A DNA stretch of 64,000 nt from Lachnospiraceae bacterium (GTDB lineage Bacteria > Bacillota > Clostridia > Oscillospirales > CAG-272), in NCBI GenBank assembly GCA_024404495.1, contig JAKSPT010000002.1:41410-105409 (forward strand). Reading direction: 5' to 3'. Each line of letters begins with the position of its first letter. The first letter of the stretch is position 1. The notes under the pieces were generated by a model. It was not told the origin of the DNA. It did no database searches and saw only the letters and a program-made list of their open reading frames with translations. The position numbers and the translations under genes were made by a program. Positions 4,580 through 53,778 of the stretch are shown here, one piece after another.

Positions 4580-4656
4580 GGCGGAATAGCTCAGTTGGCT
4601 AGAGCATTCGGTTCATACCCGACAGGTCGTTGGTTCAAATCCGACTTCCGCTACCA
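4580..4656 (+). tRNA. tRNA-Met (anticodon CAT); elongator, initiator or Ile2-lysidine identity not resolvable by eye
   Basis: Cloverleaf folded by hand: acceptor GGCGGAA/TTCCGCT, D arm GCTC-AGTTGGCTA-GAGC, anticodon loop TTCATAC, T arm GTTGG-TTCAAAT-CCGAC, encoded CCA. Confidence 0.8.
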
Positions 4657-4731
4657 GGCCCGTTGGTCAAGCGGTTAAGACACGGCCCTTTCACGGCTGT
4701 AACATGGGTTCGATTCCCGTACGGGTCACCA
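4657..4731 (+). tRNA. tRNA-Glu (anticodon TTC)
   Basis: Matches the classic Firmicutes tRNA-Glu: GGCCCGTTGGTCAAGCGGTTAAGACA...CCTTTCACGG...GGGTTCGATTCCCGTACGGGTCACCA; anticodon loop CTTTCAC; encoded CCA. Confidence 0.85.
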
Positions 4732-28720: not shown

Positions 28721-28778
28721 TCATGGGCGAGTGACGGAACGCTTTTGCAATTCATTTCATTCCGCAGGAGGTGAGAAA

Positions 28779-30032
28779 ATGCCATACAGCGAGCTGATCA
28801 AGAATTTTTCCCGCGTGCGCGACTATATGCGGGAATTCTACGTTTACGGCTTCAAGAGCCGCGACGAATACACGAAAAAGAGCGCCCGTTCCTACGACGA
28901 CGAGAAGCGCCGGATGGAGAGCCTGCTCGGCGACCGGATGCGCTTCCGCAGGACGGCGGAAGGAAAGAACGTCTTCCTTTCGATCGACACCCGCGTTTCC
29001 CGCCGCAATCCGCTGTACAAGGCGTGGAAGGCGAAAAGCTTCACCGACGGCGATATCACGCTCCATTTTCTTCTGCTTGACCTTCTTGCCTCCGAAAAAA
29101 GCGGTCTTTCCGTTCCGGAGATCACCGACCGACTTTCGGGCGTCTTCCCGGATTCGGCGCGCGTTTTCGACGAATCCACCGTCCGAAAAAAGCTGAAGGA
29201 ATACGAAGCCGAGGGGCTGGTCCGCACCGAAAAGAGCGGGAAAAGCCTTTTGTATTCTCTTTCCTGCCCGAACGATCTGGCGCCCTGCGCCGATATGCTC
29301 GGGTTCTTTTCCGAGGTCTCGCCCTGCGGCGTGATCGGTTCCTTCCTGCTTGACAAGACCGACGCGGGGGAGGGAAGCTTCGCGTTCAAGCATCATTACA
29401 TCACCGGCGCGCTCGACAGCGGGATCGCTGCTGAACTGTTCGCCGCGATGCGGGAAAAGCGGAGCGTGATCCTCGAAAACGCGAACCGGAAGAACGACAG
29501 CGTCGCAAAGATCGTCGCCGTGCCGCTGAAGATCATGTGCAGCGCGCAGAGCGGAAGGCAGTATCTGATGGCGTTTGTGCCGCGGTTCCGCAGGATCACC
29601 TCGTTCCGGCTTGACAATATCCTGTCGGTCACGGCGGGGGAGGAATGCGAACGGTTCGATGAATACCGTGCCGCGCTTGCCGGAATGCGGAAAAATATGT
29701 GGGGGATCAGTACGCAGAGCCGGGGCGGCGACAGGCTCGAACACGTGGAATTCACCGTCCGGTATGGAAAAAACGAACCGTACATCCGTCAGCGGCTCGA
29801 ACGGGAAAAACGGTGCGGAACGGTCGAGGATATCGACGGGAACACCGCGAAATTCTCCGCCGACGTGTTCGACGCGAGCGAAATGATCCCGTGGATCCGC
29901 ACCTTCCTCTGCCGGATCACCGAAATTCATTTTTCGGACCCGGACACGGAAAAGCGGTTCCTTGACGATCTTCACGCGATGTACGGTCTGTACGGGCTCG
30001 GAGAGGAGGCGGACGGAAATGCTGTTCAGTGA
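28779..30032 (+). CDS. WYL-domain transcriptional regulator-like protein (HTH-WYL-WCX type, PafB/PafC/YafY-like), first of a tandem pair
   Basis: The N-terminus MPYSELIKNFSRVRDYMREFYVYGFKSRDEY resembles the conserved N-terminus of clostridial WYL regulators; AGGAGG RBS; 14-nt overlap with the next gene. Confidence 0.5.
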   Translation: MPYSELIKNFSRVRDYMREFYVYGFKSRDEYTKKSARSYDDEKRRMESLLGDRMRFRRTAEGKNVFLSIDTRVSRRNPLYKAWKAKSFTDGDITLHFLLLDLLASEKSGLSVPEITDRLSGVFPDSARVFDESTVRKKLKEYEAEGLVRTEKSGKSLLYSLSCPNDLAPCADMLGFFSEVSPCGVIGSFLLDKTDAGEGSFAFKHHYITGALDSGIAAELFAAMREKRSVILENANRKNDSVAKIVAVPLKIMCSAQSGRQYLMAFVPRFRRITSFRLDNILSVTAGEECERFDEYRAALAGMRKNMWGISTQSRGGDRLEHVEFTVRYGKNEPYIRQRLEREKRCGTVEDIDGNTAKFSADVFDASEMIPWIRTFLCRITEIHFSDPDTEKRFLDDLHAMYGLYGLGEEADGNAVQ

Positions 30033-30930
30033 GCTTTACGGCGCATACTACAACGCCGTCGCCGCGATCCTGAAAAAAGCCGCGGAAAAACCGCTGACGA
30101 AAGAAGAAATGCGGCAGACCGTGGAAAAATACGCCTTCGGGGAAAGCTTCGTGACCATTGAAGCGGCGCTCCGGAACGGCGACTGGCCGCTGCTCGGGGA
30201 AGACGGCAGGTCGGTTCTGAAAAACGCGCCCGAAATGCCGCTGACCCTGCTTCAGAAGCGGTGGCTGAAGGCGATCTCGCTCGACCCGAGGGTGAAGCTG
30301 TTCGGCGACTGTATTCCGGACTTTCCGGAGGTCGAACCGCTTTTCACCGGGGAAGATTACGAGGTTTTCGACCGCTATTCCGACGGGGACGATTATTCCG
30401 ACGAGGGGTATATCGGCAGATTCCGTCTGATCCTCCGGGCGATCGGAGAACGGACCCCCCTGCGGTTCGAGGTGAAAAACCGGACGGGAGCGGTCAGCCG
30501 CTTCACGGCGATGCCGGAATACCTCGAGTATTCCGAAAAGGACGATAAATTCCGCCTGATGACCTCGGGCTGCCGGTACGGCTCGGTCGTCAACCTCGGC
30601 AGGATCGTTTCCTGCGAGGAGTGCTTCGGGGAACTCCGGGGCAGCCCGCCGAGGGAACGGCGCCGCGCGGAGGAGACCCTCGTCTTCGAGATCACGGACG
30701 AAAGAAAAGCGCTCGAACGGGTTTTAATGCACTTCGCCCACTTTGAAAAGGAGGCGGAGCGGATCGGGGAAAAGACCTACCGCGTCTCGCTCCGGTACGA
30801 TAAGGACGACGAGACCGAGCTCGTTATCCGCGTTCTGTCCTTCGGACCGTTTCTCCGGGTGGTTTCTCCGCAAAGCTTCGTCAATCTGATCCGGGAGCGC
30901 CTGATGATGCAGAAAAAATACGGACTGTAA
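30019..30930 (+). CDS. WYL-domain protein, paralogue of the upstream gene (PafC-like partner)
   Basis: N-terminus MLFSELYGAYYNAV parallels the first gene; C-terminal WCX-like end RVVSPQSFVNLIRERLMMQKK. Confidence 0.5.
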   Translation: MLFSELYGAYYNAVAAILKKAAEKPLTKEEMRQTVEKYAFGESFVTIEAALRNGDWPLLGEDGRSVLKNAPEMPLTLLQKRWLKAISLDPRVKLFGDCIPDFPEVEPLFTGEDYEVFDRYSDGDDYSDEGYIGRFRLILRAIGERTPLRFEVKNRTGAVSRFTAMPEYLEYSEKDDKFRLMTSGCRYGSVVNLGRIVSCEECFGELRGSPPRERRRAEETLVFEITDERKALERVLMHFAHFEKEAERIGEKTYRVSLRYDKDDETELVIRVLSFGPFLRVVSPQSFVNLIRERLMMQKKYGL

Positions 30931-31083
30931 TCAAAAACGTCGGAAATTTCCGGCGTTTCAGAGGATGTAAAAAAAGGAAACTTTTTTTACATCCTCTGTT
31001 TTCGCAGCTTTTTTTCCGTGATAATCCTTGTTTTCTATGGTATGATGGTATTGCGGAAACGGAAACGGGTGAATGAAATCACC

Positions 31084-31212
31084 GCGCTGCGCGGGGAGAT
31101 TCCGAAGCGTATGGCGGTTTCCGGATTTGCAAAGGGCAATCACGCACAGTGATGGGGTTCAACTCCCCGCTATATCGCAGGTTCGAATCCTGCCGTGCGC
31201 CGCTTTTTGTGC
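31084..31212 (+). ncRNA. Structured ncRNA with a tRNA-like T-arm; candidate Y RNA/YrlA-like tRNA mimic upstream of rtcB
   Basis: Possible -10 (tatgat) at ~31043; an 11-bp closing stem gcgctgcgcgg (31084-31094) pairs with ccgtgcgccgc (31193-31203), followed by a T-run. Internal hairpins include gggg-ttcaact-cccc and a near-canonical T-arm gcagg-TTCGAAT-cctgc. It lacks an anticodon arm and CCA, so it is not a functional tRNA. Confidence 0.45.
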
Positions 31213-31435
31213 GTATCGCCAGTGGATTGGTGTAAAAATTGCTCCGAAAAAACGCTTATCCCGTCCGGCAGAAATGCCGGACAGCGGGGAAACGGCCCTG
31301 CCGGGGAGGGGATACCGCCGTATCCCGACAAAGATCAGACCTTGCGTCCCGTCTTTGAAAGGAGCGGCTCAACGTTCCCGCCGCCGTTTTCCCGCGGATA
31401 AGCGAACGAAAATCATACCGAAAGGATAACATATT

Positions 31436-32566
31436 ATGAAAAAGGTTATTATCAACGAAAAACAGAAGGGCTTTCTTTTTAAGAACGGAAAATACGTCCG
31501 CACCGTCGGCGCGGGAAAATATCTCCTTTGGGGTGGGAAAACGGTCGAGGTCTCGGAGCTCGGAGGCGAGATCGTCTGCGCCGGGTGCCCGCTCGACGTA
31601 CTGCTGGAGGACGAGGCGTTCGCTTCGCAGGTCACGGTCGCCGAGGTCAACGACGAGGAGCTCGTTCTCCATTTCGTGAACGGGAGATTTGCGGGCGTCC
31701 TCCGCACGCGCGGAAAACACGCCTTCTGGAACGGAAAGGATGCTCACGAATTCCGTTCCGTGGACGTCTCCTCCCCCGAAGTCGGGGAAGACGTTCCGAG
31801 ATATCTGTTCGAGTCGCTTCATCCCTCGCTGTACGAGAGGATCGAGGTGGCGGAGTATCAGAGAGGGAGGCTGTTCCTCGATAACCGCTTCGTCCGCGTT
31901 CTCGAACCGGGGACCTATTATTTCTGGAGGACGGGCGTGAAGGTGGAGGTCAATACCGTCGATACCCGTCTGACGAAGATGGAGATCACCGGGCAGGAGA
32001 TCATGACGCAGGATAAGGTGGCGCTCCGCATCAATTTCGTCTGCAATTACCGCGTAACCGATTTCGTCCGGGTCCTGACCGAGATCGACAACTATGAGGA
32101 ACAGATGCACGTCGCGGCACAGCTTGCCCTTCGCGATTACGTCGGCAGATACAGGCTCGACGAGATCCTCGAAAACAAGGACGGTCTTTCCCGCTTCGTA
32201 TGCGAAAAGCTGAAGGAGAAGGAAAACGAGCTCTTCGTGGAGATCAAGGACGCCGGGGTCAAGGATATCATCCTTCCCGGCGAGATCCGCGATATCATGA
32301 ACACGGTCCTGCTCGCGGAAAAGAAGGCGCAGGCAAACGTCATCACCCGCCGCGAAGAGGTCGCCTCTACCCGTTCGCTTCTGAACACGGCGAAGCTGAT
32401 GGAGGAGAACCGTACGCTTTACAAGCTGAAGGAACTGGAATATGTGGAGCACATCTGCGAAAACGTCGGCAATATCACGCTGAACGGGAGCGGAGATATG
32501 CTCTCCCAGCTCCTCGGACTCATGAGGGGCGGAAAACAGACGGAAGAAGGGGATTTTGATGTTTGA
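31436..32566 (+). CDS. SPFH/band-7 (slipin/stomatin-like) domain protein
   Basis: Band-7 core pattern (EITGQEIMTQDKVALRINFVCNYRVTD...) followed by a coiled-coil; overlaps rtcB by 8 nt. Confidence 0.6.
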   Translation: MKKVIINEKQKGFLFKNGKYVRTVGAGKYLLWGGKTVEVSELGGEIVCAGCPLDVLLEDEAFASQVTVAEVNDEELVLHFVNGRFAGVLRTRGKHAFWNGKDAHEFRSVDVSSPEVGEDVPRYLFESLHPSLYERIEVAEYQRGRLFLDNRFVRVLEPGTYYFWRTGVKVEVNTVDTRLTKMEITGQEIMTQDKVALRINFVCNYRVTDFVRVLTEIDNYEEQMHVAAQLALRDYVGRYRLDEILENKDGLSRFVCEKLKEKENELFVEIKDAGVKDIILPGEIRDIMNTVLLAEKKAQANVITRREEVASTRSLLNTAKLMEENRTLYKLKELEYVEHICENVGNITLNGSGDMLSQLLGLMRGGKQTEEGDFDV

Positions 32567-33836
32567 CATACAGGGAAAAGTCACGACCGCCGTCTGCTAT
32601 GCGAAGGTGGTCGAGGACGCGGCGATCGAGCAGATCCGCAGAATGTGCGACTCCCCGCTGACCGAGAATGCCAAGGTCCGCGTCATGCCCGACGTTCACG
32701 CGGGCAAGGGCTGTACGATCGGGACGACGATGACGGTCACCGACCGGGCGTGCCCCAACGTGGTCGGGGTCGATATCGGGTGCGGGATGTACACCGTGAA
32801 ACTTGCCGACAGGGAGCTCGATTTTGAAAAGCTTGACGGGGCGTGCCATTTCATTCCCTCCGGAAAGAAGGTCTGGGAGGGAAGGATGGAGCGCTTCGAT
32901 CTGACCGGACTGCGCTGTTACCGTTCACTCCGCGACGCCAAACGGCTGGAGCGGTCGCTCGGTACGCTCGGCGGCGGGAACCACTTCATCGAGGTGGACA
33001 AAGCGGCGGACGGCACCTTTTATCTCGTCATCCATTCCGGAAGCCGGAACCTCGGCAAACAGGTCGCCGAGATCTATCAGCAGCTCGCGGTCGATCTGCA
33101 TTCCGGAAAAGAAGAGTACTTCAATAAGTGTGAGGAGATCATCCGTACCTACAAGGAGCAGGGAAGGCGCGCAGAGATTCAGGATACGCTGAAGGCGCTC
33201 AAAAAGGAATTCAAGTCAAAGGATCCCGACGTCCCCGAGGACCTCTGTTGGCTTTACGGCACTTATCTTGACGACTACCTTCACGACGTGGAGATCTGTC
33301 AGGCATTTGCCCGCAGAAGCCGCGAGCGGATGGCGGAAATCATTCTCGAAAGGACCGGAATGACCGCCGTCGAGTCCTTCCATACCGTTCACAACTACAT
33401 AGACACCGGGGAAAGGATCCTCCGCAAGGGCGCGATCGCAGCGCACGCGGGCGAGAAGGTCCTCATCCCGATCAATATGCGCGACGGTTCGGTCATCGCG
33501 ACCGGACGCGGCAATCCCGAGTGGAACTTTTCCGCTCCCCACGGCGCGGGGCGCGTGATGTCGAGAGCCACGGCGAAGGAAACGCTCGATATGGAGACCT
33601 ACCGCGCGGCGATGGAGGGAATCTATACGACTTCCGTTAATCCCGATACGATCGACGAGGCGCCGATGGCGTATAAATCGCTTGAGGACATCATCGACGT
33701 GATCCGCGATACCGTGGACGTGATCGAGGTCATGAAGCCGGTCTACAACTTCAAGGCATCCGGAAACGGCACCCCGTGGGAGAACGGGAAAGAAGACCCG
33801 AGCGGGGATGACGGCGCGCAGAACGAGGCGGAATAA
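32559..33836 (+). CDS. rtcB: RtcB-family RNA ligase (3'-phosphate/5'-OH RNA-splicing ligase), short 425-aa form
   Basis: RtcB metal- and GTP-binding motifs (VMPDVHAGKGCTIG, GGGNHFIE, APHGAGR); ATG at 32559 (the ORF track's 32556 is a TTG). Confidence 0.8.
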   Translation: MFDIQGKVTTAVCYAKVVEDAAIEQIRRMCDSPLTENAKVRVMPDVHAGKGCTIGTTMTVTDRACPNVVGVDIGCGMYTVKLADRELDFEKLDGACHFIPSGKKVWEGRMERFDLTGLRCYRSLRDAKRLERSLGTLGGGNHFIEVDKAADGTFYLVIHSGSRNLGKQVAEIYQQLAVDLHSGKEEYFNKCEEIIRTYKEQGRRAEIQDTLKALKKEFKSKDPDVPEDLCWLYGTYLDDYLHDVEICQAFARRSRERMAEIILERTGMTAVESFHTVHNYIDTGERILRKGAIAAHAGEKVLIPINMRDGSVIATGRGNPEWNFSAPHGAGRVMSRATAKETLDMETYRAAMEGIYTTSVNPDTIDEAPMAYKSLEDIIDVIRDTVDVIEVMKPVYNFKASGNGTPWENGKEDPSGDDGAQNEAE

Positions 33837-36467: not shown

Positions 36468-37289
36468 TTGAAATCGTTCAAAATCGGACAAAGTATTGAA
36501 AAAAGCCTGTACCCGATCGAAAGCAGACTGGAAGAAATGAACCGGGAAAGAAAAGAAGGAGAGAGAAAGCTCGCGGAGATCTGCGTCCCTGCTCTCGTTT
36601 CCGCGCTTCTGACCGCCGCCGTTTCCGACCGGCTGCTGTACGTCGATCCCATCAAGCCGTCGCTTGCGTTTAATTGGTACGAGAAGATCGTTTCCAACGG
36701 CTTCGGTATGATCGCCGTTTATCTTCTGACCTTTGCGGTGATCGCGCTTGCCGTTTTCGGCGTCATCCGGCTGATCCGCTTCTTCCTCGAAAAAAAGAGC
36801 GGAACGAAAGCCGCGCCCGCGAAAGACGAATACGCGGACAGATTCTATAAGATCATCATCCCGGAGATCATCACCGGAAGCGGAATGTTCGAGAAGGCGT
36901 ACGAGATCGAATGCGGAAACGTTGACGCCGAGGAGCTGACAGAAGGCGCGTCTGCTGCCGCGATGAACGCGGAGAATATCCGTCTGGAGGAGATCCCGAC
37001 GAAGGATATCAACCGCAAGGCGATGCTGTATTATTACGAGGCGCTTTATCATTTCCGCTCGATCATCCCCGAGCTTGAAACGATCATCTATTCCGAAGAC
37101 GCCCTGAACGCCGATCCCGTCGAGCGTTACCGCCGTATCGGGCAGGACGCCGTGACGGATGCGCTCCTCATCTGCCGCCACTGCGTGAACGAGATCTGCA
37201 AGCGCACCGAGGACGCGCACGAGGAGGAGATCATCGAGGCTTACGGCGACTACCTCCGCAAGGTCAGCGAGGTACAGTTCGACCGCTGA
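36468..37289 (+). CDS. Hypothetical membrane protein (273 aa), TTG start
   Basis: GGAGGA RBS 8 nt before the TTG; two TM helices; the C-terminal ~105 aa are duplicated immediately downstream. Confidence 0.5.
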   Translation: MKSFKIGQSIEKSLYPIESRLEEMNRERKEGERKLAEICVPALVSALLTAAVSDRLLYVDPIKPSLAFNWYEKIVSNGFGMIAVYLLTFAVIALAVFGVIRLIRFFLEKKSGTKAAPAKDEYADRFYKIIIPEIITGSGMFEKAYEIECGNVDAEELTEGASAAAMNAENIRLEEIPTKDINRKAMLYYYEALYHFRSIIPELETIIYSEDALNADPVERYRRIGQDAVTDALLICRHCVNEICKRTEDAHEEEIIEAYGDYLRKVSEVQFDR

Positions 37290-37630
37290 CAGACGGCGCG
37301 TCTGCTGCCGCGATGAACGCGGAGGACATCCGGCTGGAGGAGATCCCGACGAAGGATATCAACCGCAAGGCGATGTTGTATTATTACGAGGCGCTTTATC
37401 ACTTCCGCTCGATCATCCCCGATTTTGAAACGATCATCTTTTCGGAGGATGCCGACGACGCCGATCCGGTCGAGCGTTACCGCCGTATCGGGCAGGACGC
37501 CGTGATGACCGCGCTTCTCGCCTGCCGCCACTGCGTGAACGAGATCTGCAAGCGCACCGAGGACGCGCACGAGGAGGACGTGATCGCCGCCTACGGCGAG
37601 TTCCTGCGCACGGTCAGCGAGAAAAAATAA
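36946..37630 (+). repeat. Tandem direct duplication (~340 bp x2, ~90% identity)
   Basis: 36946-37289 versus 37290-37630 (gcgtctgctgccgcgatgaacgcggag...cgcaccgaggacgcgcacgaggagga repeated). Confidence 0.85.
37313..37630 (+). CDS. Duplicated C-terminal module (105 aa) of the upstream gene; independent small gene or gene fragment
   Basis: ~88% amino-acid identity to residues 169-273 of the 36468-37289 product (MNAEDIRLEEIPTKDINRKAMLYYYEALYHFRSIIP...). Confidence 0.4.
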   Translation: MNAEDIRLEEIPTKDINRKAMLYYYEALYHFRSIIPDFETIIFSEDADDADPVERYRRIGQDAVMTALLACRHCVNEICKRTEDAHEEDVIAAYGEFLRTVSEKK

Positions 37631-37791
37631 AAAGCATAAATATTAGCGCGGGAAAAAGATAAAGCGGTGTACAACCCAGTGAAGTGCTATGCGGCGAATG
37701 ATGTTTGATAAGTCAGAACCGGAAAAGCAATGGCATTATACTGATTTGTATACCGCCTTTTCGTTTTGTAAAAAAGAAAGCGCTCGAAATT

Positions 37792-40700
37792 ATGGAAAAA
37801 CAAACAATACAAAAAGAGATTACACGTTTGAAAGAAAAACAGATTTCGCCTTTGGATATTTCTGAAGAAGATAAGTATAATCCGATTCTCGCAAAATATG
37901 AAAGAGAAAGCGGACTTCTTTTGACCGATCGTAGAGGTTTTGATATTATTTCTAACCGGTTCTTTGTTGAAGAACGAATATCGAAAGTGATGCCTCCCTC
38001 CGCTGATTGCTTTCAAGTGGATAATAAATATTTTGATTCGTTTGATGAGTATTATGAGTACCTGAACGGATCGGTATATGACGAATCCTGTTATTCCTTT
38101 TGCCCGGAGGATAAGCTGATTTCAAAATATGAAATCGACAAAGAAAGACTTTTTTCCAAAAAGGCATTTACCACTGAAACGATAGACGAGTATCTTTCAT
38201 TGATTACAGATGCCGAGATGAGCGAATATCGGGAAAGAGAAAAAACTCATAAATTGTGTTGTAATTGGAGAAAAAAGTATCTGAATTGTCACAGCGGAAA
38301 AGACTTGATTGGTCTGATTGATAAGTACAGTCATTCTGTAATCGCAGACACAATGGATTATCAGTTCTTTTTGTCTTGCTATCTGACAGAGTTTTCTCGG
38401 GAAAAATTCTGTTTTGATTCGATAATAGAACTGATGGCTTCTGATATCTATTTGGATAATAGTTTTCTGTCAAGCTTATGCGTTATTTTTGATCCTGAGA
38501 TTATTCTTGATGCCTTAAAGCGATTTCCGCATTCCTATGGGATTAAAAAAATCAGAAAAATTTATCGAGATATTAAGCACAAGATTGGGGACGAAAAGCC
38601 TGTTTTCTATGTGCGTGGGAAATTTGATCCGGCTACACATTTCTTCTGCGAGGAGATATCAGAGTATTCAGGCAATAAATGGGTCGCAACATTTAACAGA
38701 TATTTTGAATCGTTTGAGGATTTTGCAACATACCGTAAAGGCAATCTCAGACATTGTGATTTTTCAAAGTGTCTGGAAAATATGGATAATATCGATTATT
38801 CCGGATATATGATTGATGAAACCACCGTATTGCCACTGCTTTCATATCATAAATGTCGCTATGAAATAAGCAAAAGATACCGGAAGAATGAATTTCTGGT
38901 ATCCATTCGTTGGTATGATACCAATGAGAATGAAGTTAAAACCGTCAAAAAAAGCTTTCAATATTTTTTTGATTTCGTTTCGTTTTTGAAAAACGATTTA
39001 TCTGATGCCTATTTGATTTCCTGCGACGGCTTACAGAATCTCGAGAGCGGTTCGGACATTGATTTTACGGGTGTAAGATTAACAAGCAATCTTTGCAAAA
39101 AGATGCATATCAAATATGAGCCCTGCTCGCTTTTGCTTGGTAGCGCATGGAGTTTTGCGGAAACAGAACGAAATGAAAAAGAAACAGAACTGATTTTATC
39201 TGAAAGCAGAGAAATCGTAAGTTCTCACGAAGATAAAAGTTTGTTGGGCTTCACGGATTACGACAGTCATTGTCAAAGAGTTCATTATATTTCCGATCTT
39301 CATTTGATGCATAAAATAATGAATGCCGGATGCGTCACCGAAAACGACGTGTTTTATGTGATTGATAAAATTGCCAGAACAATCGCCGAAGAAGCAGAGT
39401 CTCTTTTGTTGATTGCCGGAGATGTGTCCTCTGATTTCAACATTTTTCGCTTGTTTGTGAAATGTCTATCAGCGGCGAAAAGTTCGCAGTGTGTCGTTGT
39501 TTTTACTCTCGGAAATCATGATTTGTGGGGTATTGGAGGAAAAACCTTTTCGGAAATAACAGGAATATATCGTGAGCTAATAGAAAAGCACGGTATGTAT
39601 CTGCTTCAAAACGGTATTCTGTATCGGAATGACTATAGGATATGGGAGAATCCGTCAGCAAGCGTAAGAACGATACCATACGAAGATCTTTGCAGAAAAA
39701 CAGATAAACAGTTAACAGATGATTTGAGAAAGGCGCGATATGTGATTTTTGGCGGTCTGGGTTTTTCCGGACAGAATGAAATCTTCAATGCAAATCAAGG
39801 AATATATCTGGATGTGGTGACAAGAGAGGAAGAAATCAAAGAATCGGAAAAATTTGCTCATTTATATGACCGGTTGCTTCCCATCCTGACTACGAAAAAC
39901 GCCATAATAATGACGCATACCCCGAAAAGCGATTGGAGCGAAAACGGCGACTGCGATGATAATCTGGTATTTGTAAACGGACACACTCATAAAAATCAGT
40001 TTTATGATGACGGGTGCTATCGCCTTTATGCGGACAATCAGATTGGTTACAGCAATAAAAATCCTCATTTGAAATCATTATTGCTGGATGGCGATTATGA
40101 TTGTTTTTCGGACTATGATGACGGAATTTATTCGATTACCAGGGAACAGTATTGTGATTTCTATCGCGGAAAAAACATAATGATGACGTTTACGCGAGAT
40201 TACCCGATTACGATGTTGAAAAAAAGAGGGTATTACTGCTTTTTGGTTCAAACGAAGAAGGGCGTCTTGTCGATATTGAACGGCGGAAGTATGAAACCTC
40301 TTCCCGGAAATAGCGTTCAGTATTTCTATGATAATATGGGTTCTGTAATTGCCAATATAAATACCCCGCTTATGAAATACACAGAATATCAAAAAGTAGT
40401 CGCGGATGAAATAAAAAAGATCGGCGGCGACGGGACGATCCACGGGTGCATTGTGGATATTGACAAGTGTAATCATATTTATGTAAACCCTATAGATAAA
40501 AAGCTGACGGCATATTATGCTCCAAAAGATATAATCGACAAAACAGTATACCCATCCATTGTTTCTTTATTGGAAGAACAATGCCCTAAACTGTATCAAA
40601 TATATGAACGTTTAATGCTGGCAGAAGGACAACCAAATGCACTAATACAACAGCAAAATGGTTCGACCAAACCAACAAAATATTTGAGTACGGATATCTA

Positions 40701-40842
40701 TGAAGCGTCACGTGTCATAAAAAAGATGCAGAAAATTCATTCCAATATTTTGAGCATTTGGGCTGAAACTTCTGATGAAATTATCGACCTTACGAAAACA
40801 AATGCGATTCCAAGCGAGTATGAATGGTTGTTGCAAAACTAA
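37792..40842 (+). CDS. Large (1016 aa) protein with a C-terminal calcineurin-like metallophosphoesterase domain, on an AT-rich island
   Basis: MPP motifs in order: HYISDLHL, IAGDVSSD, LGNHD, GGLGFSG, MTHTP, NGHTH. N-terminal ~500 aa without recognisable motifs. Start trimmed to MEKQTIQ at 37792. Codon usage and GC differ clearly from neighbours. Confidence 0.6.
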   Translation: MEKQTIQKEITRLKEKQISPLDISEEDKYNPILAKYERESGLLLTDRRGFDIISNRFFVEERISKVMPPSADCFQVDNKYFDSFDEYYEYLNGSVYDESCYSFCPEDKLISKYEIDKERLFSKKAFTTETIDEYLSLITDAEMSEYREREKTHKLCCNWRKKYLNCHSGKDLIGLIDKYSHSVIADTMDYQFFLSCYLTEFSREKFCFDSIIELMASDIYLDNSFLSSLCVIFDPEIILDALKRFPHSYGIKKIRKIYRDIKHKIGDEKPVFYVRGKFDPATHFFCEEISEYSGNKWVATFNRYFESFEDFATYRKGNLRHCDFSKCLENMDNIDYSGYMIDETTVLPLLSYHKCRYEISKRYRKNEFLVSIRWYDTNENEVKTVKKSFQYFFDFVSFLKNDLSDAYLISCDGLQNLESGSDIDFTGVRLTSNLCKKMHIKYEPCSLLLGSAWSFAETERNEKETELILSESREIVSSHEDKSLLGFTDYDSHCQRVHYISDLHLMHKIMNAGCVTENDVFYVIDKIARTIAEEAESLLLIAGDVSSDFNIFRLFVKCLSAAKSSQCVVVFTLGNHDLWGIGGKTFSEITGIYRELIEKHGMYLLQNGILYRNDYRIWENPSASVRTIPYEDLCRKTDKQLTDDLRKARYVIFGGLGFSGQNEIFNANQGIYLDVVTREEEIKESEKFAHLYDRLLPILTTKNAIIMTHTPKSDWSENGDCDDNLVFVNGHTHKNQFYDDGCYRLYADNQIGYSNKNPHLKSLLLDGDYDCFSDYDDGIYSITREQYCDFYRGKNIMMTFTRDYPITMLKKRGYYCFLVQTKKGVLSILNGGSMKPLPGNSVQYFYDNMGSVIANINTPLMKYTEYQKVVADEIKKIGGDGTIHGCIVDIDKCNHIYVNPIDKKLTAYYAPKDIIDKTVYPSIVSLLEEQCPKLYQIYERLMLAEGQPNALIQQQNGSTKPTKYLSTDIYEASRVIKKMQKIHSNILSIWAETSDEIIDLTKTNAIPSEYEWLLQN

Positions 40843-40887
40843 AACAGAATGTTTTTACGGGTTTTCAAACAATCCTCGTCTATCGAA

Positions 40888-40925
40888 TAAAAGAAAAGCG
40901 CGGATACCGTGAGGTGTCCGCGCTT
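40888..40925. terminator. Bidirectional terminator between the island gene and aroA
   Basis: aaagcgcggatacc-gtgag-gtgtccgcgcttt flanked by A/T runs. Confidence 0.65.
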
Positions 40926-40929
40926 TGAT

Positions 40930-42156
40930 TTACAGGAGAGAAGCGGAAAGTCCGAGCGTTTTCAGCGTGTCATAATAGGCGGGAAAGCTCTTGTTCACCG
41001 CCTCCGCGCCGTCAAGAACGCCGCCGAAGCGGGAAAGGATGACCGAAAGCGCCATGACGATCCGGTGATCGTTATGGGAGGATAGGGGAACGGAGGGGGC
41101 GCGGAGCTGACCGCCGGGGACGGTGACGCTGTCCTTTCCGACCGAAAGCGTCACGCCGCACTTTTTCAGCTCTTCCTCCATCGCCGCGACGCGGTCGCAT
41201 TCTTTCAGCCGGAGTCTTTCGGTGTGAACGAACCGCGCGCCGTGTTCCGAAGCCGCGGCGGCAAACAGAACGGGACCGAGGTCGGGGCAGTCGGCAAGGT
41301 CGATTTCCGGCGTGCCACTCCGGAGCGCCTCAAGGTGTCTGACGGCGATCTTATCTCCCTGCAGGCTGTCCGGATCAAGTCCGATGACGGTAACGTCCGG
41401 TCCGAGAGCGAGCAGAGCGGCGGCGTTCGACCAGTCGCCCTCGACGGTAAACGACGACGGACGGCAGGTCTGATCGCCGGGAACGGAATACGAATATTGC
41501 CCGTTCCGTTCGATCCGGATGCCGAAAGCCCGCAGAACGGAGAGGGTCATTTCAATATAGGGGGCGCTCGTGACGGGGGGCAGAACGGTCAGTGTGCTGT
41601 CTCCGTGCAGAAGCGGCAGAGCAAGGAGCAGCCCCGACGCGAACTGGCTGCTTTCTGCGCCGGAAATGACGAAATTCCCCGGGCGGAGTCCCCCGCATAC
41701 GGTCAGGGAACGTGCCGAGCGGGAAAAGGTCAGTCCCTGCTCCGCGGCGATCTTTTCATATACGCCGAGCGGGCGGGAAAGGAGCCGCTCCGTGCCGGTA
41801 AACACGGTTTTTCCCTTCAGCGACATGGCGAGCGGGATCAGAAAACGCAGGGTGCTGCCCGACTCGTAACAGTCGAGGGGAAGAGACGGAAGATCGAATT
41901 TCCGTCCGGACCCGCGGACAACGCTCCGGTCAAAGCCCCGTACCGTAGCCGTCCCGTCTTCGGAGACGTTGATCCCCGTGCCGAGCGTGCGCAGACAGGT
42001 CAGCTCTGCGGCGATATCGTCGGACTCCGAAATTCCTCCGATCCTGCTTTCCCCGTCGGCAAGCGCCGCGCAGATCAGACAGCGGTGCGCATAGCTTTTG
42101 GAGGGCGGCGCGGAAACGGTTCCGGACGCGCGGGAGGGTTGGAAAACGACGTTCAT
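40930..42156 (-). CDS. aroA: 3-phosphoshikimate 1-carboxyvinyltransferase (EPSP synthase)
   Basis: N-terminus ...SGTVSAPPSKSYAHRCLICAALADGESRI and the overall EPSP synthase pattern. Confidence 0.85.
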   Translation of the reverse strand: MNVVFQPSRASGTVSAPPSKSYAHRCLICAALADGESRIGGISESDDIAAELTCLRTLGTGINVSEDGTATVRGFDRSVVRGSGRKFDLPSLPLDCYESGSTLRFLIPLAMSLKGKTVFTGTERLLSRPLGVYEKIAAEQGLTFSRSARSLTVCGGLRPGNFVISGAESSQFASGLLLALPLLHGDSTLTVLPPVTSAPYIEMTLSVLRAFGIRIERNGQYSYSVPGDQTCRPSSFTVEGDWSNAAALLALGPDVTVIGLDPDSLQGDKIAVRHLEALRSGTPEIDLADCPDLGPVLFAAAASEHGARFVHTERLRLKECDRVAAMEEELKKCGVTLSVGKDSVTVPGGQLRAPSVPLSSHNDHRIVMALSVILSRFGGVLDGAEAVNKSFPAYYDTLKTLGLSASLL

Positions 42157-50946: not shown

Positions 50947-51091
50947 CGGTTACTCCTTTTCATTATATAGCGGTGTGGAAAAAAGGATACTATAGGAATT
51001 TTATCACGGATGGAGGGAAATGTCAAGGGAGAAAAAAACGAGAACCGCTTGCGGTTGGCGGTTCTCGAGCTGCCGTACGGCAGCGCTTGTT

Positions 51092-51328
51092 TCATTTCTT
51101 TTCGGGGATTTCTTTTTCGTTCTTGCAATAGGGGCATTCGATCATATGATAGCCGCAGATACGGTACGCTTTTTCCTGCGCCTCTGCGGCAGGAAGAGGG
51201 TGTCCGCCGTCCATTTCGCGGTCAATGATGCTATCAAACTTTTCTTGATCATTGGGAACCTTGATTTGTTTGGTGTCTTGACAATAGGAACAGTTGTAAT
51301 TCATAAGAGAGATTCCTTTCAGCGTCAT
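51092..51328 (-). CDS. Small zinc-ribbon protein (two CxxC pairs)
   Basis: 78-aa ORF (MNYNCSYCQD...ECPYCKNE) with a downstream hairpin-plus-T terminator (rc of 51036-51068). Confidence 0.4.
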   Translation of the reverse strand: MTLKGISLMNYNCSYCQDTKQIKVPNDQEKFDSIIDREMDGGHPLPAAEAQEKAYRICGYHMIECPYCKNEKEIPEKK

Positions 51329-51599
51329 TTTGTGATAATCGGTTGTTAACCGCTTATCAGTATTATACTGCTTTTTCGTTTCGGCGTCAAGAAGCCGGAA
51401 CCGAATACCGGGAGACGGGAATCCCGAAAACGATCATGGATCCCTTGCTTCCCGACCGCATCGTGACCGTCAGTCACGACCGGTTTTCACAGCATTTCGA
51501 AATGAACAGACCGCTTCAGAAGCGGTGAACCGGGAAATAACGGTTGACATTTTTTGGCGGAAGTGCTATGATAAAAACAAAGAATGAGAGGATCTCTGC

Positions 51600-52625
51600 A
51601 TGAAGGAAATCACCGAATATTTATTGAAGAATGCGTCAATCAAGACGAATATCATTTCCGGGGATCGGCTGAAAGACGATAGTAAGCTTTGTATGAAATA
51701 TATTATCGAAGACGCTTTCAAACTCGGAAAGAATGGTATTGATTGCAAATATTATGACGCCGTGGTGCAGGGAGAGGGAAAAGAAAAGGATAAGATCAAC
51801 TCCCTTTACTCCAGCTCGCTTCAGTCTCTGCTTGTGTTTTGCGGGGTAAGCGCGGACAATCCGATCACCGTTGATGGAATCGAATACACGAAAGTCATGT
51901 TTGAATACAAAAACAAGGTGATCGGGTATCCGTCTTCCGTTGACGTTGTTTTGATGTCAAAGGACGAAAAGAAAGTGCTGTTTATCGAGTCCAAGCTATA
52001 CGAGATTGTTCGGGATTCTGATAAAGAAGGCAAATGTGAAGTCGGTCCGTCATATCTGTCAACTGACGAAAACGGGTATAAAAAGCTGGGTTTGTGTCAG
52101 GACGATCTGACAGAAATCGGAATAGACTTAAAGGACACCGGAATTTTCGGAACGAAAAACCCTTCCGATATGAAGAAGCATATATTAGGTTCATCAAATC
52201 AACCGACAAGAGACGGGAACGGATGGGTCAGAATAAAACCGATAAAGGGAAACGAGTATGTTTATTCGTACGGGATCAAGCAGTATTTAAGTCATATCAT
52301 CGGGATCATGAATTATAAAACCCCGGATACTAATTGCTCGACGGGATTAAAGGATCGGCTTTTTTCCAAAATCGGTTTCCTGATTCTGTATAATGACCTG
52401 CCCGGTTATACGAAGGAGGACGCAAAAGAAAAAATCAAATCTTTCAAGAAACATTGCGAGACGGTTAAAGGCGTTCTGGAGAAAAAGGCGATTCATGTGG
52501 ACGGAATCCCGATTGACATATCGATGGAATCCTATCAGAAATTGGCAGAGGAAGCAAAGCCATATTTTGATAAAATGCCTGCAACGGTCAAAGAGTATTA
52601 CCATCTTAACGAAAGAGAAACCTGA
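51600..52625 (+). CDS. Hypothetical protein with a PD-(D/E)xK nuclease-like motif, in an AT-rich islet
   Basis: Beta-strand pair ...SSVDVVLMSKDEKKVLFIESKLYE fits the (P)D...(D/E)xK core; low-GC, Lys-rich composition unlike its neighbours. Confidence 0.45.
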   Translation: MKEITEYLLKNASIKTNIISGDRLKDDSKLCMKYIIEDAFKLGKNGIDCKYYDAVVQGEGKEKDKINSLYSSSLQSLLVFCGVSADNPITVDGIEYTKVMFEYKNKVIGYPSSVDVVLMSKDEKKVLFIESKLYEIVRDSDKEGKCEVGPSYLSTDENGYKKLGLCQDDLTEIGIDLKDTGIFGTKNPSDMKKHILGSSNQPTRDGNGWVRIKPIKGNEYVYSYGIKQYLSHIIGIMNYKTPDTNCSTGLKDRLFSKIGFLILYNDLPGYTKEDAKEKIKSFKKHCETVKGVLEKKAIHVDGIPIDISMESYQKLAEEAKPYFDKMPATVKEYYHLNERET

Positions 52626-52668
52626 ACGAAAATACAATTCAAAACAATCTTTGAAGGGAGCAAACACT

Positions 52669-53778
52669 ATGAAGAAACTGTTATCGCTCGTTCTCAGCAT
52701 TCTTCTTCTTTCCGCATCCTTGATCCCGCTCGCGTCGTGCGATCAAAGCGGAAAACCGGGAGAAACGACCGCGCCGGAGGGCACCGGAGCCGAAGCGACC
52801 GGGGCGGACGCGACCGAGCCCGAAACGGAAAAGCCGGAGGAAAAAGGAATGGAACTGATCCCCGATCTGAAATTTGAAAAAGGGCTCGAGCTGCTCAGTC
52901 AGAAGGACCACGCAAACGGCGACGCGATCAAAACGCTCGGTACGCACAGCTTTTACGCCGATAAAACGGCGGAGAACCCGGTCTGGCGTCTGGCACAGTG
53001 GGATTCCGGTCCCTGCCTGATCGAAAACCGGGTGGATCGGGGCGTTTCCGAGATCACCGACGGCGCGTACCGCAGTTTTTCCTATCTGCCCGCAAAAAAC
53101 GAGATGACCTTCTTCCTCGACACCTCGCTTTATTATCAGGGCAAGCCCGCGAAGCAGGGCGACTACTGGCCGCATCTGCTGATCGAGGAAGGCGACTTCG
53201 GCTATCAGTCCCTGCCTGCAGAAACGAAGGCGTATTATTCCTGCGGAGCCGAAAAGCTGGTCTTTTCGATGGATGTGAGAATGGACGAATACGACCTGAC
53301 CAAGATCACGGGCGACTGGGTGCGCGCGGCGCAGTTCCTTGTCTATTTCTACGTCAAGGGGATCGAAAGCAATGATTTCTGCTGGTTCGGCGTGCAGATC
53401 TTCGACAACCGTTCCGAGCTGAGCGACAACTACATCGGTTATGACGGCGGCAAGCCGGATGCCTCCTCCGCGATGATCTACTCGATCGGCAGGAAGAACG
53501 TCTATCCGTCGGCAGACGAGGGCGGCTGCCCCTTCTGGTACGAGGGCAAGCCCCTCGCAAGCGATGACTGGATGCACGTCGAGATTGATCTGAAACCGTA
53601 TCTCGAAGATATGCTGAACGTCGGAAAGAAAAACGGCTATTTCAAGGTCGATTCGCTCGATGATCTCTGCATCAATGGGATGAACATCGGTTGGGAAACG
53701 ATCGGCACCTTCTGCCACTCCATGTCGGTGAAGGATATGTCGCTCCGCTCCTATCTCGAAAGCGACCTTGCCGAATAA
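52669..53778 (+). CDS. Lipoprotein of unknown function
   Basis: Lipobox LLLSASLIPLASC; GAAGGGAG RBS; start trimmed from the ORF-track 52393. Confidence 0.55.
   Translation: MKKLLSLVLSILLLSASLIPLASCDQSGKPGETTAPEGTGAEATGADATEPETEKPEEKGMELIPDLKFEKGLELLSQKDHANGDAIKTLGTHSFYADKTAENPVWRLAQWDSGPCLIENRVDRGVSEITDGAYRSFSYLPAKNEMTFFLDTSLYYQGKPAKQGDYWPHLLIEEGDFGYQSLPAETKAYYSCGAEKLVFSMDVRMDEYDLTKITGDWVRAAQFLVYFYVKGIESNDFCWFGVQIFDNRSELSDNYIGYDGGKPDASSAMIYSIGRKNVYPSADEGGCPFWYEGKPLASDDWMHVEIDLKPYLEDMLNVGKKNGYFKVDSLDDLCINGMNIGWETIGTFCHSMSVKDMSLRSYLESDLAE

Follow-up and report, generated by a model that had tools for sequence, protein, structure and literature searches.

A solitary, horizontally circulating metallophosphoesterase gene of gut Firmicutes as a candidate single-protein conflict module

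Introduction

The Calcineurin-CE clade of conflict effectors, which Nicastro et al. are said to have described in 2023, reportedly consists of effectors fused to or encoded beside PUA, NACHT, SAVED, HAD and similar domains. A calcineurin-type phosphoesterase module is also found in Pnkp, a large bacterial polynucleotide kinase-phosphatase-ligase, where it acts on nucleic-acid ends. Two anti-phage systems, DS-8 (MPP plus NACHT) and DS-9/PUA-Cal-HAD, require catalysis by their metallophosphoesterase (MPP) for defence. DS-8 (DefensePredictor; WP_032203427.1, E. coli) is a single protein of ~1014 aa with a gene span of 3,045 bp, annotated “metallophosphoesterase”, in which an N-terminal MPP (D52, N84) is followed by a NACHT P-loop (K375). 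PUA-Cal-HAD is made up of two genes, with a PUA-like sensor domain of about 180 aa N-terminal to the calcineurin-like phosphoesterase effector and a HAD phosphatase; a preprint reports depletion of dNTPs by this system and an ability to cleave NAD+. An immunity-evading phage MPP has also been reported (PMC12287305).

Here we describe an MPP gene from a Lachnospiraceae bacterium, located in a window (the whole stretch of DNA analyzed) of 64,000 nucleotides from contig JAKSPT010000002.1 of assembly GCA_024404495.1. An earlier note on this DNA, made from the sequence alone, had singled the gene out as a possible phage-defence gene of an undescribed type.

Results

We examined the open frame that spans 37705 to 40842 on the forward strand. 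The ATG at 37792 gives a product of exactly 1016 aa with the N-terminus MEKQTIQ, and homologues start at the position matching this ATG, so that frame, start codon and homologue starts all agree with the single 1016-aa ORF that had been proposed. The product is identical to an NCBI protein from a metagenome-assembled genome, “metallophosphoesterase [Lachnospiraceae bacterium]”. The GC content of the gene is 37.2%, versus 56.7% in the 10 kb upstream and 60.0% in the 10 kb downstream, bearing out the suggestion of a solitary, horizontally acquired island. With a genome GC of ~58% the host is not a low-GC organism, and the low GC is confined to the MPP gene. The island lies between a gene for an unknown membrane protein and the shikimate operon aroA-aroQ-aroE/K-aroC, which is the conserved operon that the earlier note had placed alongside. 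The MPP gene and aroA are convergent, and the GC-rich hairpin between them, whose right arm overlaps the aroA stop codon, is probably a bidirectional terminator for both. The features are collected in Table 1.

Table 1. Positions of the MPP gene, its island and the modules of its product in the window
Feature	Position	Strand	Description
MPP gene CDS	37792..40842	+	complete, 1016 aa plus stop; from ORF and translation
Low-GC single-gene island	37631..40889		~3.26 kb: ~160 bp leader, CDS and ~45 bp trailer; from composition profile, GC comparison and sequence
Repeat module R1	37897..38127	+	residues 36-112; three beta strands and a helix
All-helical domain	38128..38580	+	residues 113-263
Repeat modules R2 and R3	38581..39111	+	R2 residues 264-345; R3 residues 348-440
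Linker with long helix	39112..39276	+	residues 441-495; AF2 helix H456-484
Calcineurin-like binuclear MPP domain	39277..40071	+	residues 496-~760; active site intact
Novel conserved C-terminal domain (CTD)	40108..40809	+	residues ~773-1006, about 230-250 aa
GC-rich hairpin	40890..40931		inverted repeat I5: 19-nt arms, 84% complementary, 4-nt loop

The island ends showed neither att-like sites nor direct or inverted terminal repeats, and no recombinase was seen at the island. A promoter and terminator scan gave a signal no higher than background, and Rfam reported only two tRNAs in the window, at 4.6 kb, and only tRNAs at four related loci. An empty, uninserted allele was not found; a metagenome scan with AroA gave no relative closer than 53%. 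Upstream of the gene the window carries tandem paralogous small ORFs and, at ~4 kb, RtcB. We considered the upstream RtcB/WYL/SPFH cluster as a functional partner and rejected it, as it is DNA of host GC outside the island and is not recurrent beside homologues.

The same island with the same flanks is present in a contig of a sister lineage, L101, at 88.8% DNA identity. In this pairwise comparison, dN/dS was 0.24 for the MPP gene and 0.20-0.22 for the flanking host genes, and the gene is therefore maintained under purifying rather than diversifying selection. Along the gene dS varied from 0.12 to 0.84, a hint of intragenic recombination.

The earlier note had divided the protein into an N-terminal domain of about 500 aa and a C-terminal MPP domain at residues ~530-800. 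The MPP domain stands, but it is central rather than C-terminal; the conserved CTD that follows it had been missed, and the N-terminal half consists of three repeats and a helical domain, giving the order R1, helical domain, R2, R3, linker helix, MPP, CTD. The repeats are homologous beta3-alpha units of ~60 aa. By hhalign, R1 matched R2 at 93% (E 2.6e-7) and R3 at 69%, and R2 matched R3 at 96% (E 7.6e-9). In the AF2 model, R1 is formed by strands E43-51, E56-64 and E74-81 followed by helix H84-90, R2 by E271-305 and H308-314, and R3 by E356-389 and H392-398; the confidence of the model is low beyond residue 479, within the linker. R1 closes with the motif F-D-x-F-D-x-Y-Y-x-F-L-N-G, and in the alignment of homologues the R2/R3 region has the invariant residues F305, L319, W374, F392, D394, F395, L399, L403 and L408. 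The segments after the repeats (e.g. NDLSDAYLISCDGLQNL) bear a visual likeness to pentapeptide repeats, a reading that we rejected, since none of the pentapeptide families in Pfam gave a match at E ≤ 1.

We next consider the catalytic domain. All of the motifs listed in the earlier note are present (DLH 502-504, GDVSSD 543-548, GNHD 574-577, GGLGFSG 654-660, MTHTP 707-711 and GHTH 730-733), with the correction that the second has the form GDxxxD, not GDxxD. The five ordered motifs of the superfamily (DxH, GD, GNH[DE], H, GHxH) and the metal ligands D502, H504, D544, N575, H576, H709, H731 and H733 were invariant in 41 homologues of 32-85% identity. Pfam Metallophos (PF00149) matched residues 496-734 with E 2.9e-7 and 31.6 bits, above the curated cutoff of 21.5, and together with the MPP fold this places the domain in the superfamily. 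The intact motifs predict an active enzyme. Its top structural neighbours are PptH, Lmo2642 and Mre11/SbcD, and the fold does not tell which substrate is used, as the nearest structures span a phosphopantetheinyl hydrolase, a cyclic-nucleotide phosphodiesterase and Mre11. A sequence-profile search of the PDB with the MPP family returned only 6unc, at E 0.57. NCBIfam TIGR03729 (acc_ester phosphoesterases) scored 34.8 bits against a cutoff of 148.25, and TIGR00619 (Mre11/SbcD) scored 22.6 bits against 77.65 and covered only residues 498-577. The N-terminal half of the MPP domain weakly matches the phage metallophosphoesterase PHROGs 1649 and 547.

Compared by description rather than by sequence, DS-8 resembles the window protein in being a single large MPP polypeptide of similar size (~1014 vs 1016 aa); the window protein has its MPP between the beta3-alpha repeats and the CTD and has no Walker A motif. 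Like PUA-Cal-HAD, it may have a sensor N-terminal to a calcineurin-like effector, and it is set apart, again by description, in being solitary, in having the extra CTD and in lacking both a PUA or HAD match in Pfam and a conserved partner gene. The immune architecture of the Calcineurin-CE type was thus not found, with no such domain in the protein and no HAD partner conserved across loci. Neither the Walker A motif ([GA]xxxxGK[ST]) nor the ligase KxDG motif occurs anywhere in the protein, and the argument that a protein with no P-loop is not Pnkp therefore holds: both the P-loop kinase and the ligase are missing. Hen1, the partner of Pnkp, is not among the commonest neighbour Pfam families, and SbcC/Rad50, the partner expected of Mre11/SbcD, is absent from the window; no neighbour of either kind is conserved across loci. 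PptH (Rv2795c, PDB 6unc) and the Lmo2642-type phosphodiesterases share 17% and 11% identity with the window protein, have chains of 278 and 409 residues, and lack both the N-terminal repeats and the CTD. The protein has neither a transmembrane segment (maximum KD19 1.49) nor a signal peptide, its N-terminus being charged, as the earlier note had said. The note's description of the type as undescribed has also held up: PADLOC-DB v2 (5,027 defence protein models) gave 0 families at E ≤ 1, Pfam leaves the N- and C-terminal parts uncovered, and no PDB fold matched the N-terminal half.

The CTD, with the core motif GG-x-GTIHG-x-I-x-DID-x-x-NHIYVNP-x-D, recurs in a second, sister family (hhalign E 4.7e-43) of more than 100 clusters, whose members of about 570-730 aa have a head of ~255 aa in place of the N-terminal repeats and MPP. 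An example is WP_174892039 (569 aa) of L. reuteri pAN417A. The invariant residues of the head, D172, D181-x-K183 and Q197-xxx-Y201 (pattern D...D-x-K...QxxxY), suggest from motifs alone that it is PD-(D/E)xK-like; the best match of the sister family in a PDB profile search was non-significant (E 0.062), and none fell in the head. The head is also found fused to RNase_T or DUF4391. Full-length members of this uncharacterized family have no precomputed Pfam domain and, like the MPP gene, are solitary, low in GC and placed among housekeeping genes. The MPP family itself also exchanges modules. In one relative (P0065) residues 1-112 are replaced by the N-lobe of Tpt1/KptA, and in others the N-terminus is swapped for DUF4116 repeats or is shorter. 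Such mixing and matching in the two families would be typical of conflict systems.

The MPP family is a large one, with 1,693 clusters at 50% identity, but its distribution is patchy. The earlier note would have given up its proposal had the homologues been core housekeeping genes; they are instead accessory genes. Of ~185,579 species genomes, 265 carry a relative, in a scatter that takes in Lachnospiraceae, Oscillospiraceae, Clostridium, Erysipelotrichaceae and Bacilli. The genomic contexts fall into 74 groups or more, and the GC of the homologues is far below that of the host. Over 91 loci the GC of the gene was 0.21-0.46 (mostly about 0.3) and that of the flanks 0.24-0.63, with a mean deficit of 0.106 and a deficit greater than 0.05 at 64 of the 91. 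No neighbour or partner gene was conserved across the family loci. Between unrelated contexts, DNA identity of 88-94% stops within ~30-140 bp upstream and ~40 bp downstream of the ORF. In a sub-clade of 1008-aa proteins, upstream homology reaches the 3′ end of an XRE gene or its remnant, and a structured element of about 300 nt lies 3′ of the gene, so that the exchanged unit there is not always a bare ORF. Some loci adjoin serine recombinases or XRE regulators. There was no match in 50,697 GenBank phage records and no full-length match in plasmids. Relatives are present at eight loci on viral contigs. Four of these matches are near full length, and three of the four sit at the extreme end of the contig, a place where host DNA is often included in prophage calls. 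The MPP gene is real, intact and horizontally acquired, and belongs to a large uncharacterized family of gut Firmicutes proteins that circulates horizontally as an accessory gene.

To assess association with defence islands, as the earlier note had advised, we used 149 neighbours of 32 non-redundant loci. Single neighbours matched models of Wadjet JetBCD, AbiEi/Eii, PDC-S04, type IIG RM and type I MTase. With these five clear systems, at most ~5 of the 32 loci adjoin known defence genes, a raw count with no background rate. The window's own neighbourhood holds no defence system. The Wadjet assignment, at L045, rests on gene order and sizes, and a PDB phmmer search with two neighbouring ORFs there returned nothing. 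SMC_N matches among the neighbours accompany ATPases of the ABC_tran/AAA_21 type, and at L010 AAA_21-RloB lies about 9-10 kb upstream of the relative. Upstream of the gene at L002, L004 and L005 are several small ORFs and a member of the Imm26 family. Most of the neighbours are housekeeping genes (ABC transporters, MatE, glycosidases, DnaE, PFK).

Discussion

Our best explanation, held tentatively, is that the MPP gene encodes a single-protein conflict module with a phosphodiesterase or nuclease effector. The most likely role of this cytoplasmic single polypeptide is plausibly anti-phage or anti-mobile-element defence of the abortive-infection type, a reading helped by analogy with the validated MPP-effector systems DS-8 and PUA-Cal-HAD. 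In its favour are also the intact active site, the accessory and mobile habit of a gene that is nevertheless maintained, the exchange of modules in both families, and the defence genes, serine recombinases or XRE regulators beside some relatives. Against it count the zero PADLOC matches, the predominance of housekeeping neighbours, the defence-free surroundings of the gene in the window, the lack of matches in GenBank phages and of full-length ones in plasmids, and selection that is purifying and not diversifying. We infer the defence role, the class of substrate and the division of labour between sensor and effector. The variable N-terminal region would sense an invader-derived molecule or a nucleic-acid feature, and sensing would free the central binuclear MPP, which would then attack nucleic acid, the nucleotide pool or signalling nucleotides at their phosphodiester bonds. 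The CTD may be a shared regulatory or assembly module able to drive different nuclease-type heads.

It is unlikely, though worth weighing, that the gene is instead selfish, a mobile gene of the nuclease type in the manner of free-standing homing endonucleases or addiction genes, its main “function” being its own spread or retention, with the MPP or the sister head cutting DNA and the CTD and N-terminal domains picking the target. A nearly bare ORF with sharp homology boundaries, inserted between housekeeping genes at many loci with no recombinase or terminal repeats at the window's island, is what such a gene would look like; a sister family with a nuclease-like head lives in the same way, a GC deficit that has persisted suggests that the gene resides in a mobile pool, and the uneven dS is consistent with recombination within the gene. 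However, for a homing endonuclease the protein is unusually large and has many domains, 74 unrelated contexts speak against site-specific homing, inheritance has been stable since the split from the L101 lineage, and the 1008-aa sub-clade does not always exchange a bare ORF. The purifying selection on the gene and its mostly housekeeping neighbours could also point to an accessory cellular enzyme with no immune role, in RNA or DNA end-healing or repair (as in the Pnkp phosphatase module or SbcD/Mre11) or as a phosphodiesterase whose substrate is phosphopantetheine (PptH-like) or a nucleotide, cyclic or otherwise (Lmo2642/Icc-like). The top structural neighbours are such enzymes, the similarity to TIGR03729 and SbcD points weakly the same way, one relative bears the RNA-binding lobe of Tpt1, and RtcB lies upstream in the window. 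We consider this improbable, given the patchy family, the strong GC deficit in most hosts, NCBIfam scores far under their cutoffs, the missing P-loop and ligase motif, and the lack of any conserved partner or of SbcC/Rad50, Hen1, a ligase or a kinase nearby; RtcB itself is host DNA and is absent from the recurrent neighbours and commonest neighbour Pfam families elsewhere.

Two further readings appear much less likely still. A counter-defence enzyme that came from a phage or mobile element, breaks down the signalling nucleotides of immune systems and is now chromosomal would fit the PHROG matches, the relatives on viral contigs and the precedent of the immunity-evading phage MPP. We give it a very low probability, as GenBank phages have no match, most of the near-full-length viral matches are at contig ends, and 1000 aa with sensor-like repeats would be atypical of anti-defence enzymes. 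The Imm26-family gene and small ORFs at three loci, and the small paralogous ORFs in the window, recall polymorphic toxins or effectors that are secreted and encoded next to an immunity gene, but we regard this as highly improbable: the protein has neither a signal peptide nor a transmembrane segment, Pfam finds no LXG, WXG100 or Rhs domain and no other one known from secretion or trafficking, no adjacent immunity gene is conserved over the 74 contexts, and the catalytic domain is central rather than C-terminal.

Returning to the reading as a conflict module, a broader and more doubtful proposal is that the CTD defines a previously unrecognized class of single-gene conflict modules in gut Firmicutes, with the CTD driving interchangeable phosphodiesterase heads (MPP or PD-(D/E)xK-like) and a new beta3-alpha repeat as sensor, spread in the form of AT-rich cassettes that hold little more than one gene. 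Should the defence reading be true, it would add a widespread single-protein immune system, common in human- and animal-gut Lachnospiraceae. The architecture, absent from PADLOC and Pfam, would then be an addition too, and both the beta3-alpha repeat and the CTD would count as new types of domain. The theme of MPP effectors seen in DS-8 and PUA-Cal-HAD would then reach Gram-positive anaerobes, and the CTD would be a handle for finding more systems through domain swapping. Whatever its function, the gene is an unusually clean case of a gene living in the mobile pool: a 3-kb ORF whose GC stays at ~30% even where that of the host reaches 63%, with little or nothing co-travelling in most lineages, calls for a mechanistic explanation.

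The metallophosphoesterase gene and its surroundings

The plus-strand open reading frame 37705..40842 encodes, from the ATG at 37792, a 1016-aa protein whose N-terminus lines up with the starts of its homologues in alignment. The identical protein is present in an NCBI MAG (P0001; assembly GCA_024500545.1), where its only name is "metallophosphoesterase [Lachnospiraceae bacterium]". The GC content of the gene is 37.2%, versus 56.7% and 60.0% in the 10 kb on either side, and the low-GC stretch contains this gene alone. Upstream, a tandem duplication (repeat D1) of the 3' part of a 273-aa ORF creates a 105-aa ORF; neither ORF had a Pfam or PADLOC match, and the island-side copy of the duplication is also present in L101, a contig of the sister lineage.

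Elsewhere in the window, a cluster of host GC encodes two tandem WYL/WCX-domain regulators (a PafBC-like pair) together with a small ORF, an SPFH/Band_7 protein and the RNA ligase RtcB. This cluster, which lies outside the island and does not recur beside homologues of the metallophosphoesterase (MPP) gene, is possibly an operon for stress responses or RNA repair. A second low-GC patch (45-46% versus ~58%) may be another small acquired island; its two ORFs matched nothing in Pfam or PADLOC. A pair of tRNA genes sits side by side near the window start, where local GC is lower (~55%).

Positions of features in the window and in loci carrying relatives
Feature	Sequence	Positions	Remarks
Low-GC stretch	window	~37631 to 40889	from GC profile
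273-aa ORF	window	36468..37289	5' of MPP gene; membrane-anchored look by eye
105-aa ORF	window	37313..37630	touches island left edge; tandem copy of C-terminal part of 273-aa ORF
Repeat D1	window	36990-37271 / 37340-37621	~86% identical
Shikimate operon	window		3' of MPP gene, opposite strand; EPSP synthase, type II dehydroquinase, shikimate dehydrogenase/kinase, chorismate synthase
WYL-RtcB cluster	window	28731-33836
Second low-GC patch	window	51000-53000	ORFs 51020..51349, 51600..52625
Two tRNA genes	window	4580-4728
XRE-type gene	L016	9184-9999	example
Downstream element	L016	13028-13372
Downstream element	L018	6925-7268
Downstream element	L033	13016-13361
Downstream element	L014	3696-4036
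Downstream element	L019	4532-4857
Downstream element	L028	13034-13380
Downstream element	L022	3261-3568
Downstream element	L093	3028-3317
Downstream element	L013	6991-7265
Downstream element	L001	3071-3324
Downstream element	L037	2143-2287
Downstream element	L011/L012	12928-13028	partial copy
Sister-family gene	L182 (L. reuteri plasmid pAN417A)	11720-13429	record positions; homologues P0268-P0387

Domain architecture

The earlier note had described an open reading frame with an MPP domain in a one-gene island, all of which held, and had placed that domain at the C-terminus, which did not: the MPP is central and a further domain (CTD) follows it. Pfam Metallophos matched residues 496-734 above the gathering threshold, and all MPP metal ligands are kept across homologues of 32-85% identity. 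No Walker A, KxDG motif or hydrophobic segment was found in the 1016 residues. Two AlphaFold2 models built from a 41-sequence alignment, covering residues 1-495 and 492-1016, were both confident (pLDDT 85.6 and 85.9, respectively). In the model of the N-terminal half, a module with three beta strands and one helix occurs three times (R1, 43-90; R2, 271-314; R3, 356-398); the first two copies are separated by a helical domain (140-265), and the third is followed by a long linker helix (456-484). Profile-profile comparison gave 93% for R1-R2 (E 2.6e-7), 96% for R2-R3 (E 7.6e-9) and 69% for R1-R3, while controls against the helical domain gave 0.1-0.2%; judged by these profiles, the three modules are homologous. 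Nowhere in the protein are invariant positions packed more densely than within the CTD (~773-1006), where they include G878, G879, G881, H884, G885, D889, H895, N899 and P900; no PDB match revealed such a domain.

A tblastn search of plasmids returned a Limosilactobacillus reuteri "hypothetical protein" (WP_174892039, 569 aa) that matched over the CTD only. Its family, hereafter the sister family, has over 100 clusters, with proteins of ~570-730 aa; none of the full-length members carries a precomputed Pfam domain. Alignment of the two family profiles gave 100% probability (E 4.7e-43), with residues 773-1006 corresponding to sister residues 285-565. The invariant residues of the sister N-terminal head (G169, D172, D181-x-K183, Q197-xxx-Y201) suggest a RecB/Cas4-type PD-(D/E)xK nuclease signature; a PDB profile search returned nothing for this head, which is fused elsewhere to an RNase_T exonuclease (P0387) or DUF4391 (P0383). 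Sister genes are also solitary among housekeeping genes, at 34-37% GC in hosts of 49-60%, and the one on pAN417A is surrounded by IS30 and IS200/IS605 elements, integrases, an Eco57I-type enzyme and a MazF toxin. Among MPP-family relatives, one has residues 1-112 replaced by the N-lobe of the RNA 2'-phosphotransferase Tpt1/KptA, those on viral contigs have DUF4116 repeats and a single beta3-alpha module, and those of ~800 aa are shorter at the N-terminus. What stays constant is thus a core of one repeat module, MPP and CTD, behind a variable front end.

Distribution and mobility

A word-indexed search found 123 clusters of relatives. When 1.84 billion representatives were searched exhaustively with a profile, 1,693 matched at E <= 1e-3 and 1,049 at E <= 1e-30; the majority are ~1000 aa and matched at full length. 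Relatives occurred in 265 of ~185,579 species-representative genomes, the hosts being Lachnospiraceae (Blautia, Roseburia, Eisenbergiella, Acetatifactor), Oscillospiraceae, Clostridium, Erysipelotrichaceae and Bacilli. Annotated phage records held no relative and plasmids no full-length one; eight IMG/VR contigs had relatives, and three of the four near-full-length matches were right at the end of the contig as fetched. Many members, including clusters of 148-336 sequences, were on contigs of 2.3-4.5 kb ending a few hundred bases from the gene (L001, L014, L037, L048, L062, L066, L068, L084), a pattern consistent with assemblies breaking where a strain-variable or multi-context cassette begins or ends.

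Across 91 loci with usable flanks, GC was 0.21-0.46 in the gene (mostly ~0.3) and 0.24-0.63 in the flanks, with a mean deficit of 0.106 and a deficit above 0.05 in 64 loci. The higher gene GC in the window and other high-GC hosts (0.38-0.43) would reflect partial amelioration. The ~100 loci fell into 74 context groups, with no neighbour common to loci beyond sub-clades, and between loci with unrelated neighbours a DNA identity of 88-94% ended ~30-140 bp upstream and ~40 bp downstream of the ORF. In L101 both the island and its flanks correspond to those of the window (88.8% DNA identity), so the insertion in this lineage is not recent. Nei-Gojobori dN/dS between the two was 0.24 for the MPP gene versus 0.20-0.22 for flanking host genes, which argues that the gene is maintained by selection. 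Along the gene dS was uneven, ranging from 0.12 in the MPP to 0.84 in residues 1-112, a hint of recombination within the gene.

The exception to this exchange of an almost bare ORF was a 1008-aa sub-clade with an upstream XRE-type gene, or its remnant, and a downstream structured element. In L013, L014, L016, L018, L019 and L033 a 270-aa XRE-type HTH gene reaches to within 1-8 nt of the MPP start codon, and in L002, L020, L025 and L028 only ~100-140 nt of its 3' end are left, which suggests an ancestral XRE-MPP pair that was repeatedly truncated. Immediately 3' of the MPP stop codon is a conserved, GC-richer element of ~280-340 nt, past which the loci diverge; it is missing from the window and from L020, although L020 has retained the same XRE gene downstream. 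The element had an RNA fold z-score of -6.4 and no Rfam match. The fold is closed by a long-range helix, and compensatory changes occur at three pairs, of which two belong to the central hairpin. It could be an ncRNA that travels with the gene or an element of the 3' UTR.

Search for defence genes

The MPP protein matched no PADLOC model. We scanned the 149 genes within three genes on either side at 32 non-redundant loci; the Pfam families were for the most part housekeeping ones, but two serine recombinases and two Eco57I/MmeI-type enzymes were also present. Strong single PADLOC matches were JetB, JetC and JetD, a type IIG RM, a type I methyltransferase, AbiEi and AbiEii, and PDC-S04, five systems that by raw count lie at no more than ~5 of the 32 loci. 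Matches to mad2/3/8 and AriA were probably ABC-ATPase cross-matches. At one locus (L010) an AAA_21-RloB pair lies ~9-10 kb upstream. The window's own flanks had no defence match, only the WYL regulators 7-9 kb away.

Possible functions

Our best guess, held tentatively, is that the protein is a putative conflict-system protein with a defence function, because it combines an intact phosphodiesterase and a variable N-terminus with a shared C-terminal module that has interchangeable nuclease-type heads, and because it is a solitary insertion with a patchy distribution and a persistent GC deficit. There is precedent for MPP catalysis as a validated immune effector in DS-8, a single protein with MPP and NACHT, and in DS-9/PUA-Cal-HAD, reported to deplete dNTPs and to be capable of NAD+ cleavage. 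Our protein has none of their sensors or partners, and in it the MPP occupies a central instead of an N-terminal position; it therefore belongs to neither system and is at most of the same kind. Going by the swap for a putative PD-(D/E)xK-like head and by the Tpt1 N-lobe variant, we lean towards a nucleic-acid substrate.

Mobility and nuclease-type heads might also be expected of a selfish nuclease-type mobile gene, and an intact phosphodiesterase among mostly housekeeping neighbours might be an accessory repair or nucleotide phosphodiesterase; we consider either of these unlikely. An anti-defence enzyme is improbable, and a polymorphic toxin more improbable still. The phage-defence interpretation of the earlier note found partial support: the family proved undescribed and mobile as proposed, and a defence role remains the best guess. 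What the window carries is a member of an uncharacterised, widespread and clearly mobile MPP family with two new domain types.
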